Part shown: one piece after another, positions 39,812 through 61,152 of the stretch
How the letters are laid out: the number at the start of each line of letters is the position of its first letter
Numbering within the stretch: the first letter of the stretch is position 1
NCBI GenBank assembly: GCA_044356335.1
Contig: JBIKWL010000005.1
Span: 10,946-74,945 of the forward strand
Direction of reading: 5' to 3'
DNA: 64,000 nt
DNA from: Candidatus Sericytochromatia bacterium
Lineage (GTDB): Bacteria > Cyanobacteriota > Sericytochromatia > UBA7694
Notes under the pieces: model-generated
What the model saw: the letters and a program-made list of their open reading frames with translations, nothing else
What the model was told of the DNA's origin: nothing
Database searches by the model: none
Program-made: the position numbers and the translations under genes

Positions 39812-40111
39812 ATGGCAAAGACATTTTTGAAGCCCCTGGGCGACCGGGTGGTTGTAAAAGTAGTTGAAGGTGAAGATAAAACCAGCGGTGGCATTTTGCT
39901 GCCCCAAACCGCCAAAGAAAAACCCCAGGAAGCCGAAGTGCTGGCTGTGGGTCCCGGCAAAATGCTGGAAGATGGCAAACGCTCTTCGATGGAAGTGCGT
40001 GAAGGTGATCGCGTGATCTTTGCCAAATACGGCGGAACCGAAGTGAAATCCCAAGGCGAAGAACTTCTGATCATTTCAGAAAAAGACATTCTCGCCATCG
40101 TTGAAAGATAA
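39812..40111 (+). CDS. groES: Co-chaperonin GroES
   Basis: The start at the internal ATG 39812 gives [17 protein letters not shown]..., the canonical GroES. Confidence 0.95.
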
Positions 40112-41788
<1,677 letters not shown>

Positions 41789-53249: not shown

Positions 53250-53369
53250 TGCGGAAGCTTCGCAAAAATTACAAAAATATCGTTGTTTGGGGCATTATTG
53301 CCTCTTTGGTGCTGAGTATCATCTTTAGTTTGGTTGTCTCAATGGCCACGATTTTTGTACAATAAAGAT

Positions 53370-55961: not shown

Positions 55962-56951
55962 CTAAAAAACAACCAATTCCTGGTGTGAGCCAGGGAAGGC
56001 GATATCTTCAATCCGGTAGGTCACACCATCGGGATTAAAGCGCACGCGGCTGACGCGATTCTGCTGATTGTGAGAGACATAGAGCTGTTGGCCGTCTTGC
56101 GAAAGGGCTGCATAGCGGGGCAAAGCGTGGGGCAGGGTGATCGGGGACAAGCGGTTGATCTGTTTGTCTTCGATTTGATAGCGCTCAATTTTATCGTTGA
56201 TACTGGCAAAGATCGAACGGCCATTGCGGGAAATCAGACCACTGTAGAGGTAGTTCTCGGAGCCTTTGGCCTGGGCAGTTTTATAACCCAGCTCACCCGT
56301 TTTGTAATTAAACGAGTAATTGACAGAATAGGTCTGGCGACTGGCCAGATTCACGGTGGTACGGGTCATCGATGCGGCACCAAAGTGCAAAATCTGCAAA
56401 TCTTGGGTCTGGGCGCCATATTGTAAGGTGCCTGGCTGAAAATCATAGACCACAGGCTGCCAGCCGTAGGCCCGCAGATCGTAGCTAAACAGAGCGGGAC
56501 GTTTGTTTTGCATGCCCACAGCATAGAGTTTGCCATTTTGAATTAAAAAATCTTCGGTTTCAAGGCCGACTTGAGAAAAAGACAGCAGACGGCGAACCTG
56601 ACCATCGAGGACATTCACTTCGTAGAGAGTTTGATCGGTACTGCCCTGAGCGACAGAATTGACATAGAGCTTGCCTTCAGCCTGAACGCCATCCATGCTT
56701 TTGACTTTGCCTGGCACCATCACCGAGCGTACGCCCTGTTGGTTCAGATCGAGAATTTTGACAATCGAGTGGCCTTCACGGGCTTCGATGCTACAGAGGT
56801 AGCGGTCTTGGTTCTTGGCGGCCTGGGCAGGCGCGGTATTTAAAGCTCTGACTTGAGCAGGGGCCAAGACAGGAGCGGAGGAACAGGCCGTGATCAAGCT
56901 GCTGATAACGAGGGCCAGCGAAAGAAACGCTGGAATTTTGAATACGGACAT
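55962..56951 (-). CDS. Hypothetical lipoprotein, possibly a beta-propeller; the sequence ends in F
   Basis: Signal peptide followed by ITACS lipobox. Repetitive beta-rich sequence. Confidence 0.45.
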   Translation of the reverse strand: MSVFKIPAFLSLALVISSLITACSSAPVLAPAQVRALNTAPAQAAKNQDRYLCSIEAREGHSIVKILDLNQQGVRSVMVPGKVKSMDGVQAEGKLYVNSVAQGSTDQTLYEVNVLDGQVRRLLSFSQVGLETEDFLIQNGKLYAVGMQNKRPALFSYDLRAYGWQPVVYDFQPGTLQYGAQTQDLQILHFGAASMTRTTVNLASRQTYSVNYSFNYKTGELGYKTAQAKGSENYLYSGLISRNGRSIFASINDKIERYQIEDKQINRLSPITLPHALPRYAALSQDGQQLYVSHNQQNRVSRVRFNPDGVTYRIEDIAFPGSHQELVVF

Positions 56952-57292
56952 TGCGATTAACCCAAAATAAACTTTATCGTGTTTTTACTAGTTTTTTACT
57001 ATGTCTTAATCTTATCATAATCATTTTTAAAAGAAAAGATCCGTTTGCCCATTTTTTTAGATTTTCGGGGTTATTTTTGCCAAAACCCGGTTTTTGAGGG
57101 TCTTCAAATGGTGGCAAAACGGGATAGGAAGCTCAACAAGCGGCTCATCTTAAATTGGATGCAGCTTGTTTACAGCCCACTCTATCAGTGGCATTATTAA
57201 AAACCACAATGCAACAAATACGAAGCAACATCCTTTAAGCTGGTCACAGACATTTAAATCCAATCCTTTTTGTATCGAAAGAGTAGTCCTTT

Positions 57293-57748
57293 ATGAAAAA
57301 GCAGCTTACAGTATGCCTCTCTCTCCTTTTATATTGCACTCTTGGTACTAAAGCCCATGCCTTGAGCGAAAAATATCAACATTTAACGTTGAAAGAAAGA
57401 GAGTCAGTTTTTCAGACTCTGAGAATGGACGAATCGACTTTTTTTCCGGAAAACTTGATTCCCTTTGGTTTTGCTTCTTTTTCGCGTGGCGACATTCTAA
57501 CAGGTACGGCAGTTTGCTTAATGGATGCTGCCACCGTATTTATTGTAGCCATTGGTAATGGCTGGACAATAGGAGCGGCACCAATAGGGTACGTTTTAGG
57601 AAGAGGTATTGGCCTGTTTACGATGGGAGTACATATCCCTGAGTACAATAATCAGTTGAAGCGCGATCTGGGTATCGATACGACTCTAAGTCTAGATAAA
57701 ATAAGTACTGGCCACATTCAACTGGCTACTTATCAATTCACGTTCTAA
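57293..57748 (+). CDS. Small exported protein with a Gly-rich hydrophobic segment, located in the AT-rich islet
   Basis: Signal peptide. Internal AVCLMDAATVFIVAIGNGWTIGAAPIGYVLGRGIGLF. Confidence 0.4.
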   Translation: MKKQLTVCLSLLLYCTLGTKAHALSEKYQHLTLKERESVFQTLRMDESTFFPENLIPFGFASFSRGDILTGTAVCLMDAATVFIVAIGNGWTIGAAPIGYVLGRGIGLFTMGVHIPEYNNQLKRDLGIDTTLSLDKISTGHIQLATYQFTF

Positions 57749-57760
57749 GCCCTTTAATGA

Positions 57761-58381
57761 ATGAGTAACAAAAATAACATGAATAAATTACTCCTGGTCA
57801 CCACGCTATTTTTATCCGGCTGCGCCACAACACAACAGTGGAAATATGTTGCTATCTATGAAAAGGCTTTTAAGCAAGTCTTAGTAGATGGCGAGAAACA
57901 AGCTCTTGATGTTGATTTACCCTTGAGTTTCAAAGATAAATTTATCAAAATTTCGCTCAAGCCGGAAAGGTTTGGGGTGTTTTTGTATCTTGAAAACTTA
58001 ACCAGTAAAACCATTCAAGTGATTTGGAATGACTCAGTTATTTACTTAGAGCATCAGCCTTTGGCCATTCTTCCAACAGAAGCGACTGCTTACTCCTCGT
58101 ATAACGGACAGCATATTAGCCTGATTCCGCCAGGTGCTTTCTTCAAGCAAACGGCAGCACCTTTAAAGGATATAAACACTTTTCTGAGTTCAAATACAGA
58201 TTTACATCCCCTTTACACAGAAAAAGCGCGCCAAGAAATGAAAGAAGAATTCTACAACTATGTAAATGGTAAAAAACAGTCGGAAATATATGATCTCATG
58301 TTAACCCTCGAAATTGAAGGAGTCAAAAAAGAGTACTTTTTTGAGTTTTACATATCAAGTGCAAAAATTGTTGAGTTATAA
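57761..58381 (+). CDS. Hypothetical lipoprotein in the AT-rich islet
   Basis: LFLSGC lipobox. Confidence 0.4.
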   Translation: MSNKNNMNKLLLVTTLFLSGCATTQQWKYVAIYEKAFKQVLVDGEKQALDVDLPLSFKDKFIKISLKPERFGVFLYLENLTSKTIQVIWNDSVIYLEHQPLAILPTEATAYSSYNGQHISLIPPGAFFKQTAAPLKDINTFLSSNTDLHPLYTEKARQEMKEEFYNYVNGKKQSEIYDLMLTLEIEGVKKEYFFEFYISSAKIVEL

Positions 58382-58398
58382 CCCTAAAGAGGAAAACC

Positions 58399-59193
58399 TT
58401 ACTCCAAGGTCTTGGTAATCTTGCTCTTGAGCAAGGTAAACAGACCAGAGGCTTTGTACGCTTTGTCGAGCAATAAGCTGCCAACAGCGCCACCGGCCAC
58501 AGCGGCGATGGTGATCGGCAGTCCACCGGCTCCTGCCAAGGTCACGCCCAGGCTGGCCATACCAGAGAAAACACTGGCACCCATCCCGGATAAAAAGCCA
58601 CCGACAGTATCAGCTGCGACATTGCCCACAGCCTCTTTGGCAGTTTGGCGACCAGAGATGGTTTCAAAGGTATTGGCGAATAAAGAGGTACCGGCATTGA
58701 TGGCGCTGGAGATGCCGCCTGCTTTGATTGAAATCACACCCACCTGTTTGAGACCGCCCGCCAAACCTTTAAAGGCCTGACCAAATTGGCCGTTGATAAA
58801 GCCACTTTTGACATTCTGATAAGTGGTGTGGGTGATGGTGGCAACTTCTCCACCGTAGCGATAGCCGACATAACCACCGGAAAGGGTGCGGCCAACCAAG
58901 CTGCCAATAGCCGAAAAACCTCGGGGATTATTGCTGAAAGAAGTGGTGTCCTGATAGACGTAGCCGCCACCGTCTTTGATACCGGTGAGCTGGGCAACAA
59001 CTTTGTTATACCGATTTTGTTCAGCTGTGTCAGGAACATAGCCGTACTCCATCTTTTTGTCGAGCTTCTTGGCCCATTCAATCTCCTCACGGGAGACAGG
59101 CGCCATCACCGGCGCGGTAACGGTACCGGCGGTGGGACTCTTGCCCAGGGCGGGCAGAGAAGGCGTAGTGGGGAGAGCGCTTAAAGTTGTCAT
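58399..59193 (-). CDS. Gly/Ala-rich glycine-zipper protein, paralog C; shares ADTVGG and the zipper domain with paralogs A1 and A2
   Basis: VGNVAADTVGGFLSG motif. C-terminal GxxxG ladder. No signal peptide. Confidence 0.6.
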   Translation of the reverse strand: MTTLSALPTTPSLPALGKSPTAGTVTAPVMAPVSREEIEWAKKLDKKMEYGYVPDTAEQNRYNKVVAQLTGIKDGGGYVYQDTTSFSNNPRGFSAIGSLVGRTLSGGYVGYRYGGEVATITHTTYQNVKSGFINGQFGQAFKGLAGGLKQVGVISIKAGGISSAINAGTSLFANTFETISGRQTAKEAVGNVAADTVGGFLSGMGASVFSGMASLGVTLAGAGGLPITIAAVAGGAVGSLLLDKAYKASGLFTLLKSKITKTLE

Positions 59194-59304
59194 TGTGTTT
59201 ATTAACCTGTTTAAGTTATCGAAAGAACAGGTTAAGATCTTGCTTGTTTTTAGTTAAGAAAACCCTTTATTTTGGGGACTTTGCTGCCACTTAAATAGAA
59301 AAAA

Positions 59305-59347
59305 GACCTAAAAAAAAAGACCTGGTCTGCAAGATGCAGTTCCAGGT
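59305..59347 (-). terminator. Rho-independent terminator on the - strand, after glycine-zipper gene B2
   Basis: On the - strand the sequence reads gacctgg-N16-ccaggtc followed by T9. Confidence 0.65.
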
Positions 59348-59382
59348 CAGAGGGAGTAATGTAGAGTTAAAAGTGTTTTAGC

Positions 59383-59970
59383 TTAAAAGGAGTCAGTCAG
59401 GGGCTTGGCGAGTTGACCGCCAAGCACGCCACCCACAGCACCAAAGGCCACGGTGGCAATGGTTAAAGGAATACCAGCCAGGCCCAGAGAGCCCAAGGCC
59501 AGATTGCCCAGACCGCCAATGGTGACAGCACCGAGACCACCCACGGCACCGCCGATGGTGTCTTTCATGACATTGCTCACCGCTGTGCTGCCATCGGTGC
59601 TGCCAGAGGCAATGCCCACGCCGTTGGTCACAACCGAGACACCGGCACTGACCAAAGCCGACAGACCAGCGCCTTTGAGACCCGTCAATGCGGTGTTTTT
59701 CAGACCTGTCATAAAGGTCTTGCCGAAAATAGATTTGATATTCTGACCCATCTGATTGCCCAGTTTGTGGGCGGCAAAACCGCCTCCGGCGGCATTGGCC
59801 ACCATTGAGCCAATTGAAGAGAAATCGCCACCAAAGGCACCGCCGCCTGTATCGCCGGTCGAAGGGGTATAAGGTGAATAAGGGGTGTAGTTGCTGGTTT
59901 GTACGCTGGGAGCAGTCGCCGTATAGGGATTGGATCCAATGCCTGTTAAACTCATTTTGATAAACTCCAT
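59383..59970 (-). CDS. Gly/Ala-rich glycine-zipper protein, B-type paralog (B2)
   Basis: C-terminal GGLGAVTIGGLGNLALGSLGLAGIPLTIATVAFGAVGG is shared with B1. Confidence 0.6.
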   Translation of the reverse strand: MEFIKMSLTGIGSNPYTATAPSVQTSNYTPYSPYTPSTGDTGGGAFGGDFSSIGSMVANAAGGGFAAHKLGNQMGQNIKSIFGKTFMTGLKNTALTGLKGAGLSALVSAGVSVVTNGVGIASGSTDGSTAVSNVMKDTIGGAVGGLGAVTIGGLGNLALGSLGLAGIPLTIATVAFGAVGGVLGGQLAKPLTDSF

Positions 59971-60037
59971 TACTCTTTTAAAATCTTTGTAAAATCTTTG
60001 TAAAATCTTTAAATCCGTTTAGTTCTTGAAACAGAAC

Positions 60038-60766
60038 TTAATAACCGTAAGCAGGCTGTTGGTAATAACCCGCAGGTGCTGCAACAGGATCGGTTCCGCC
60101 AAAAGCTTTGCGCATCGTTCCTGCGAGGTTATCGCGCAGACCACTGGAATTGTAGAGGTAGTTCACACCAACCGAGCCAAGGGCTCCAGCCGCAGCCGCA
60201 GCAACGGTCAGAGGGATACCCGCCAAACCGAAGGAACGCAGAGCCAAGCTGCCCAAACCAGCACTGATACCGGCACCGGCACCGCCGAGCAAACCGCCGA
60301 CAGTATCTGCAGCCACATTGCCACCGGCATCGGCTTTGCTCATTTCTCCGCGGGCAGCGGCTGCGCCGTTTTGCACCCCGGAGATCAAACCGCTGACCAA
60401 ACCGCCAATACCTGCCGATTTGAGGGTGGCCATACCTAAATTTTTGAAGCCTGCGCCCATGCCCTGACTTTTAAAGGACTTAAAGGCATCAGAGACTTGA
60501 TTGTGCATCATGCCGCCGGTGATACCACCAGAGAGAATGCCACTGATCAGATTAAATCCATTACCTGTGGTACTCACAGGATAAACAGAAGGAGGATAAG
60601 GTTGGGTCTGCTGATAGCTATCGCCAGAAAAGACCCCAGCGACCTGATTGATCGCGCCATCTACGGCATATACTGCGGGAACCATAGTATTGACAGCGCC
60701 TTGAACAGCACCAGCTGTATAAACTGCCTGATTAAATCCATTGACCAATCCGTCAACTCCACCCAT
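60038..60766 (-). CDS. Gly/Ala-rich glycine-zipper protein, A-type paralog (A2)
   Basis: N-terminal MGGVDGLVNGFNQ...AVYAVDGAINQVAGVF and the ADAGGNVAADTVGGLL motif are shared with A1. C-terminal tail YYQQPAYGY. Confidence 0.6.
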   Translation of the reverse strand: MGGVDGLVNGFNQAVYTAGAVQGAVNTMVPAVYAVDGAINQVAGVFSGDSYQQTQPYPPSVYPVSTTGNGFNLISGILSGGITGGMMHNQVSDAFKSFKSQGMGAGFKNLGMATLKSAGIGGLVSGLISGVQNGAAAARGEMSKADAGGNVAADTVGGLLGGAGAGISAGLGSLALRSFGLAGIPLTVAAAAAGALGSVGVNYLYNSSGLRDNLAGTMRKAFGGTDPVAAPAGYYQQPAYGY

Positions 60767-61089
60767 GGTTCAATCTCCTTTGATCTTCTGTTAACCGTAA
60801 ATTTGTTTTCTTAGTTTAAATATCGCCAAGCCCCCCAAGATCTTGTGAGAGCAAGGTTAAGAAGCTATTAATCTTAGAGAAAGTTTTGAATAATAAATTT
60901 TAAGGCAGGATTAAGTCCAAACAATAGAAGCAAATTATTAGAACCAAAACAAAACAAAAACAAGGCTACCATTTGCATTGACACCTTTCCCCAAGAAAAT
61001 TAAATCCCTGTCATTGAAAGATTAACAAAGCATGAAGGCGCTGTTTTGGGCCGGAATAACCCGATCTTAACCCCGTTAAAAAGCAGCCA

Positions 61090-61119
61090 ATAAAAAAGCA
61101 GACACACAATGTGGTCTGC
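61090..61119 (-). terminator. Rho-independent terminator on the - strand, after glycine-zipper gene B1
   Basis: On the - strand gcagac-N10-gtctgc followed by TTTTTTATT. Confidence 0.5.
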
Positions 61120-61152
61120 CGAGGGAGTATGAGATGAGTCAGAAATTTGAAT

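Follow-up and report, generated by a model that had tools for sequence, protein, structure and literature searches.

Flexible genomic islets are strain-variable replacement cassettes that occupy conserved intergenic hot spots and often encode envelope proteins. The P13 protein of Borrelia is described as a porin-active homo-oligomer of ~300 kDa that is predicted to be α-helical, and its C-terminal 28 residues are removed by the protease CtpA (PMC6879480; PMC4939628). Here we analysed a 64,000-nucleotide stretch of contig JBIKWL010000005.1 from a Candidatus Sericytochromatia bacterium (hereafter the window), in which a short AT-rich patch next to an array of glycine-rich genes carries two open reading frames, ORF1 and ORF2. 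The original prediction, made from the letters of the window, had taken this patch (56952-58398) for an AT-rich islet whose two exported products were candidate immunity or partner proteins of the array. Our preferred account, which we hold to be reasonably probable, is that the two genes form a recently acquired, strain-specific envelope cassette that encodes a P13-type channel and a partner lipoprotein, and that is functionally unrelated to the array.

The AT-rich segment and its site in related genomes

The patch at 56952-58398 has a GC content of 38.0%, compared to a mean of 50.9% for the window, and is the lowest among all 1447-bp windows (z = -5.2). It is visibly AT-rich against its surroundings, as had been noticed, and the background of about 55% quoted on that occasion was too high. 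The GC content at third codon positions (GC3) is 0.375 for ORF1 and 0.386 for ORF2, compared to 0.565 ± 0.051 (minimum 0.450) for the 42 other genes of the window, which places the two genes 3.5-3.7 standard deviations below the others (z ~ -3.6). In addition, the tetranucleotide L1 distance of the patch ranks first among 628 windows (z 5.6), and the patch remains an outlier after correction for base composition, with a GC-normalised tetranucleotide correlation at z = -2.8. The GC3 of the two genes is not uniform with that of the 42 others, and the GC3 and tetranucleotide deviations of the segment are of the foreign-DNA type.

To delimit the acquired DNA, seven related Sericytochromatia/Blackallbacteria loci were aligned to the window by BLAST and junction alignment. 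The left-hand homology with L004, L005, L006, L008, L016 and L019 is unbroken up to position 57136, and the right-hand homology resumes at 58390. Because homology to the relatives stops and restarts at these two positions, the strain-specific DNA comprises 57137-58389 (+ strand), a segment of 1253 bp and 38.7% GC that takes the place of an ancestral spacer of ~190 bp. The extent originally proposed for the islet is correct for this segment, whereas its left 185 bp (56952-57136; 33% GC) are conserved core intergenic DNA upstream of the neighbouring gene, retained by every near relative and in part by the more remote L020, and were not acquired. That neighbouring gene, on the left flank, is a core gene encoding a DUF6923/β-propeller-like lipoprotein (55962-56951, - strand; Pfam DUF6923, E 1e-10), whose product shares 94-99% identity with its counterparts in near relatives and 71% at the amino acid level in L020. 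The right flank is formed by gene C (58399-59193, - strand), a core gene and the last of the glycine-rich array, which belongs to no Pfam or NCBIfam family and shows 97.6-98.8% identity in near relatives and 76% in L020.

The cassette is absent from the site, with the flanks conserved, in six lineages (L004/L017, L005, L006/L007, L016, L019 and L020), of which L016 is the closest, with ~95% nucleotide identity in the flanks, and L020 the most distant, with ~70%. All six have a gene-free spacer of 183-400 bp only. The spacers of L004, L005, L016 and L019 are homologous and carry the hairpin AAAAACCTGCCGAAACAGGTTTTT, which in our reading resembles a terminator acting in both directions, and the spacer of L020 aligns poorly. 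The spacer of the islet-free relatives (L004 10804-10999) also contains a GAGTCGAAGG tandem repeat beside the terminator-like hairpin, and the window has neither. Because the relatives including the distant L020 are without the cassette, and four of the spacers are homologous and share the hairpin, the ancestral state of the site is, to judge from these alignments, empty. In a further lineage (L008-L011/L018), an unrelated low-GC insert of 2705 bp occupies the same site (L008 8313-11017) and encodes a 476-residue lipoprotein and a 279-residue protein with a signal peptide, also convergent with gene C; neither of the two genes has a family match. Two independent assemblies reproduce the segment of the window at 99.9-100% identity, and thus the patch is not an assembly chimera; L002 covers both junctions, and L001, which starts at window position 57232, covers the right junction only. 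Being absent from six lineages with conserved flanks, replaced by a different insert in another and an outlier in composition, the segment is almost certainly an acquired islet gained recently in one strain, in line with that part of the original prediction.

The islet borders showed neither direct nor inverted repeats, and target-site duplications and inverted terminal repeats were likewise missing; a transposon, integron or integrase mechanism was rejected in view of these repeat-free borders. A scan for RNA families (Rfam, tRNA or other) gave no match across the window, and relatives of the cassette proteins were found in none of the plasmid, phage and viral collections. Because mobility features are absent, we infer that the exchange took place by homologous recombination in the conserved flanks. 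The site shares with flexible genomic islets the conserved flanks and the alternative, unrelated low-GC contents across strains, as well as cassette products that are exported or surface proteins, and the lack of an integrase is consistent with homologous recombination. Compared to such islets, the present cassette is very small, with two genes in 1.25 kb.

ORF1 and the P13 family

ORF1 (57293-57748, + strand) encodes 151 residues, and its product is best described as a putative small membrane protein, helical and exported, that counts as a divergent member of the P13 family known from Borrelia. As judged by rules, its N-terminus forms a signal peptide that consists of MKK, a hydrophobic core and a cleavage site between AHA and a leucine. 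A strongly hydrophobic, glycine-rich segment with the hydropathy peak lies at residues 68-96, so that both the signal peptide and the transmembrane-like segment originally described for this protein are borne out. The ratio of nonsynonymous to synonymous substitution rates (dN/dS) is 0.11 relative to the homologue on contig L003, with saturated dS, and indicates purifying selection. In a plain scan, neither ORF1 nor ORF2 matched a Pfam family at threshold.

An exhaustive HMMER search of 1.84 billion representative proteins with ORF1 and P0004 retrieved 11 more proteins of 150-181 residues, with E-values from 1e-8 to 9e-4. The resulting 13 family members are all 150-181 residues long and possess a signal peptide. 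They share the motif N-x-x-P-x-G-x-x-S-F-x-x-G-D, a conserved Asp, the motif G-R-x-x-G and an invariant C-terminal Phe, which are spread over the full length of ORF1. The NCBIfam model NF033724, “P13 family porin”, is matched by 12 of the 13 members (best E 7e-13), and Pfam PF05628 by 11 (best E 5e-12), seven of which score at or above the Pfam threshold. Alignment of ORF1 and P0004 against these seven members using hhalign gave a probability of 99.5% and an E-value of 3.1e-23 over 133 columns. Moreover, the NCBI name of the family member P0035, which comes from the L008 genome, is “P13 family porin [Candidatus Sericytochromatia bacterium]”. Altogether, these profile comparisons make it very likely that ORF1 is homologous to the P13 family; judged by sequence, the family reaches beyond the spirochaetes, with one member coming from a Sericytochromatia metagenome-assembled genome.

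The AlphaFold2 model of ORF1 contains helices only and ends in a disordered tail of ~20 residues at the C-terminus, with a modest predicted local distance difference test (pLDDT) score of 62 and a predicted template modelling (pTM) score of 0.47. A fold search of the PDB with this model of pLDDT 62 found nothing significant, the best hit having an E-value of 1.2; we know of no solved structure for the P13 family. Similar to P13 of Borrelia burgdorferi (BB0034) and its paralogues, ORF1 has a precursor of ~150-180 residues with an N-terminal signal peptide, and according to the model it would also resemble them in having hydrophobic helical segments, rather than a β-barrel, and a C-terminal tail. 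The likeness extends to the motifs that ORF1 has in common with the relatives passing the Pfam threshold, including the terminal Phe. By contrast, ORF1 itself falls below both curated thresholds, its host belongs to the Sericytochromatia and not to the spirochaetes, and its gene, which is coupled to one for a lipoprotein, belongs to an AT-rich cassette specific to the strain. In addition, ORF1 differs from the Borrelia proteins in having no BLAST-level similarity to plasmid records. Paralogues of Borrelia P13 would be expected in a plasmid collection; ORF1 found no match in the plasmid records or in IMG/VR, and P0036, a family member that passes the Pfam threshold, found none in the plasmid records.

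Genes of the P13 family also occur in related metagenomic genomes. At L028 944-1987, two tandem paralogues encode proteins of 164 and 176 residues. The gene of P0035 (L029 228-725) is single and is followed by a gene for a 215-residue protein with a GDSH motif; in our reading this motif resembles that of SGNH hydrolases, and the protein is unrelated to ORF2.

ORF2 and its pairing with ORF1

ORF2 (57761-58381, + strand) encodes a putative orphan lipoprotein of 206 residues. The lipobox LSGC at residues 18-21, as first described, follows a positively charged n-region and a hydrophobic h-region (KNNMNK-LLLVTTLF), and the mature part is hydrophilic. The homologue on contig L003 has the lipobox VSGC, in agreement with the pattern [LVI][ASTVI][GAS]C. 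Relative to this homologue, ORF2 shows a dN/dS of 0.10, again with saturated dS, which indicates purifying selection. Searches of Pfam, NCBIfam, PADLOC, PHROGs, the PDB, plasmids, phages, IMG/VR, GTDB genomes and JGI metagenomes yielded no match to ORF2.

The two genes are on the same strand with a gap of 12 nt and are probably co-transcribed. A consensus scan found a candidate promoter borne by the islet at 57169-57197 (+ strand), composed of TTTACA, a 17-nt spacer and TG-n-CATTAT. A leader of ~90 nt upstream of the ORF1 start codon ATG is weakly conserved with L003; beyond this leader, the DNA resembles that of L003 in the two coding sequences only. At the downstream end, the stop codons of ORF2 and the convergent gene C are separated by 17 bp (58382-58398), confirming that both small genes adjoin and converge on the array; the ancestral hairpin is missing from this gap. 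Because that hairpin has been lost and no terminator-like hairpin was detected between ORF2 and gene C, the transcripts of the two genes may overlap.

Among 5.8 billion proteins, the sole homologues of ORF1 and ORF2 are encoded by one adjacent pair of genes on contig L003, with amino acid identities of 70% and 73%, respectively. This pair sits between hpt and a gene for a 357-residue exported protein, inside a lineage-specific replaced segment (L003 2537-3993) where the relatives L022-L027 have a gene for a 237-residue membrane protein. The recurrence of the pair in a different replaced segment supports its mobility. On the 8.8-kb contig, which covers ~2.6 kb on the upstream side of the pair and 5 kb on the downstream side, no glycine-rich array gene is present. 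The contig also carries a gene for CdiI_3 (L003 8153-8602; E 1e-16), an immunity protein of contact-dependent growth inhibition (CDI), which lies in a patch of 37-40% GC, 4.4 kb downstream of the pair, and no toxin gene is visible on the contig.

Assessment of the cassette and of the alternatives

We propose that the cassette took the place of the spacer that, with its terminator, had separated gene C from the DUF6923 gene, at an intergenic site that varies among strains, as one among several alternative low-GC cargoes swapped at this hot spot. It would be expressed as a single operon from its own candidate promoter. ORF1 would be exported via the Sec pathway, cleaved by signal peptidase I and inserted as a small helical oligomeric channel, probably into the outer membrane, by analogy with its P13 homologues. 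ORF2 would be lipidated in the manner of signal-peptidase-II substrates, anchored in the envelope, and presumably work together with ORF1. The cassette might thereby alter the envelope of the carrier strain, having no functional tie to the neighbouring array. Within this proposal, the composition, the boundaries, the absence from relatives, the purifying selection, the homology to the P13 family and the export signals are shown; we infer the outer-membrane location, the channel activity, the partnership of ORF1 with ORF2 and the gain by homologous replacement.

Several observations weigh against the proposal. ORF1 alone scores under the curated thresholds, with 11.5 bits against 25 for PF05628 and 20.4 bits (E 3.7e-4) against 100 for NF033724, and because of these sub-threshold scores its membership of the family rests on transitive profile evidence. 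A channel function of ORF1 would be an extrapolation, as no P13 relative outside Borrelia is known to have been studied; outside the spirochaetes the family appears unstudied, and a full-text search of the literature found no paper on it there. ORF2 is without detectable relatives outside the cassette, and its structure prediction has a pLDDT of 32. The candidate promoter is recognised by its consensus only, and the region has no more matches of this kind than chance would give. No mobility gene, tRNA or flanking repeat accounts for the insertion, and the segment holds just two ORFs. Furthermore, the other P13-like genes (L012, L013, L015, L028 and L029) have unrelated neighbours, none of them ORF2-like; the partnership of ORF1 and ORF2 is therefore drawn from two cassettes, and their link is, among the genomes compared, specific to the cassette.

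The array beside the cassette (58399-62826; L004 5854-10795) consists of five tandem paralogous glycine-rich genes, which are core to the clade and share 25-34% identity with gene C. The encoded proteins have a conserved GNVAADTVGG...GIPLTIAAVA C-terminal region and no obvious signal peptide, and they matched no family in Pfam or NCBIfam. The copy number varies, with an extra copy of ~190 residues in L004/L017 and L019. Inside the array, a 386-bp intergenic gap (60767-61152) between the genes for proteins of 242 and 221 residues is AT-rich as well (~39-40% GC). The suggestion that a foreign origin of the array is hidden by Gly and Ala codons finds no support, because the GC3 of its genes (0.46-0.58) falls among the values of core genes and the clade has the array by ancestry. 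Comparison of the locus with relatives showed a syntenic array in every one of them, down to ~70% nucleotide identity, without ORF1 and ORF2 at the site (L004, L005, L006, L016, L019, L020 and L008). The C-terminus of gene C is identical across islet-bearing, empty and alternative-insert genomes, and thus its alleles do not co-vary with the content of the site.

These data bear on the idea that the pair supplies immunity or partner proteins for the array, whose own products are taken as toxins. Such a role would suit a pair that lies directly beside gene C, 17 bp from its stop codon, whose products are both exported and could meet a membrane-active protein, and whose site is occupied in L008 by genes for two other exported proteins. 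However, at least six lineages keep the array without the pair, gene C retains its 97.6-98.8% identity and the same C-terminus whatever stands at the site, and the L003 pair is found without an array gene on its contig. The convergent orientation means that the pair is not co-transcribed with gene C. Moreover, the profiles of the ORF1 family and of the array proteins were not similar by hhalign (probability 0.07%), searches of Pfam, NCBIfam, PADLOC and PHROGs linked neither ORF1 nor ORF2 to a family of immunity or defence proteins, and the toxin nature of the array proteins, themselves without a family match, is an assumption. Judged by its distribution, the pair is thus very unlikely to serve the array, and this part of the original prediction is largely refuted. 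Less improbable, though still unlikely, is a self-contained competition module, in which ORF1 would be a pore-forming toxin and ORF2 its immunity protein, or the pair would be an orphan protection against the toxins of other strains. This possibility draws on a second strain-variable hot spot between the genes for an M23 peptidase and UvrC, which is empty in the window (53250-53333) and filled in L005 (9209-12408) and L008 (14853-17428). The low-GC cassettes at this second site encode proteins of 585 (L005_585) and 566 residues (L008_566) that are 88% identical over ~215 N-terminal residues, followed by a PT-rich linker, unrelated C-termini and then small genes, an arrangement that resembles polymorphic-toxin architecture; L008_566 also has a lipoprotein-type signal. 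The N-terminal domain of the 476-residue lipoprotein that L008 has at the site of our cassette is 34-37% identical to these proteins, so that polymorphic-toxin-like lipoproteins are found at both hot spots. The CdiI_3 gene downstream of the L003 pair, the pore-forming activity of the family in Borrelia and the strain-specific, AT-rich nature of the pair point the same way. On the other hand, the signal peptide of ORF1 is ordinary, and elsewhere its family occurs as single or tandem genes with unrelated neighbours and no ORF2-like partner. ORF1 and ORF2 have no toxin, immunity or secretion-system domain, no secretion apparatus lies beside the cassette, and the toxin-related matches in the cassette proteins of relatives (Tox-REase-3, E 1.3e-3; Imm30, E 0.013) are weak, sub-threshold and in unrelated proteins. 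Compared to polymorphic toxin-immunity cassettes of the CDI or Rhs type, the present cassette is similarly strain-specific, AT-rich and made of small genes, and its site holds in L008 the lipoprotein with the shared N-terminal domain; it differs in having no toxin or immunity domain, no conserved delivery domain, no variable C-terminus, and no co-variation with any neighbouring gene. We give only a small chance to an exchanged cassette of a pore-former and a dedicated lipoprotein regulator or immunity protein that competes with polymorphic-toxin-like cassettes for the same hot spots. If it were true, P13-type proteins would serve inter-strain competition, or the diversification of phage or bacteriocin receptors, and not housekeeping solute uptake.

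The two other alternatives concern the origin of the segment. An ancestral cassette that was repeatedly lost, and not gained in this strain, would explain the lack of mobility genes and repeats at the borders. Nevertheless, the cassette would have to have been excised precisely at least four or five times, each time leaving the same sequence, given the homologous hairpin-bearing spacers of L004, L005, L016 and L019 and the likewise pair-free, poorly aligning spacer of L020, and such a history is at odds with a GC3 and tetranucleotide deviation as in foreign DNA; we regard it as highly improbable. Even less credible is an AT-rich patch made up of non-coding filler, or produced as an assembly chimera, in which the two ORFs would be spurious or in decay. 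The very few homologues in 5.8 billion proteins and the lack of a Pfam match for either protein would fit that view. However, a dN/dS of ~0.1 for both genes (with dS saturated) in ORFs that are intact in two lineages, the conserved family motifs over the whole of ORF1, and junctions reproduced at 99.9-100% in independent assemblies stand against it, and what is seen of selection and of the assemblies already suffices to refute it.

With the two genes read as an acquired envelope cassette, the toxin-immunity story for the array is removed, and their adjacency would be an accident of a recombination hot spot rather than a functional link. ORF1 is of a known kind, as a divergent member of a described family, and the islet is an ordinary flexible-genome replacement; to experts on genome plasticity, none of this would come as a great surprise. 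The mildly new aspects are the apparent mobility of a P13-type gene paired with one for a lipoprotein, and its occurrence in the Sericytochromatia. The little-studied P13 family of Borrelia would thus have divergent relatives in non-photosynthetic relatives of the cyanobacteria, and one such gene, travelling as a strain-specific cassette with an orphan lipoprotein, offers a handle on the family outside the spirochaetes. The comparison also marks two intergenic hot spots for the exchange of envelope and toxin-like cassettes, which may be useful for describing strain diversity in this uncultured clade. Elsewhere in the window, the second most deviant stretch in tetranucleotide usage lies at ~40000-41700 and overlaps a 552-residue ORF (40130-41788, + strand) and a long antisense ORF.

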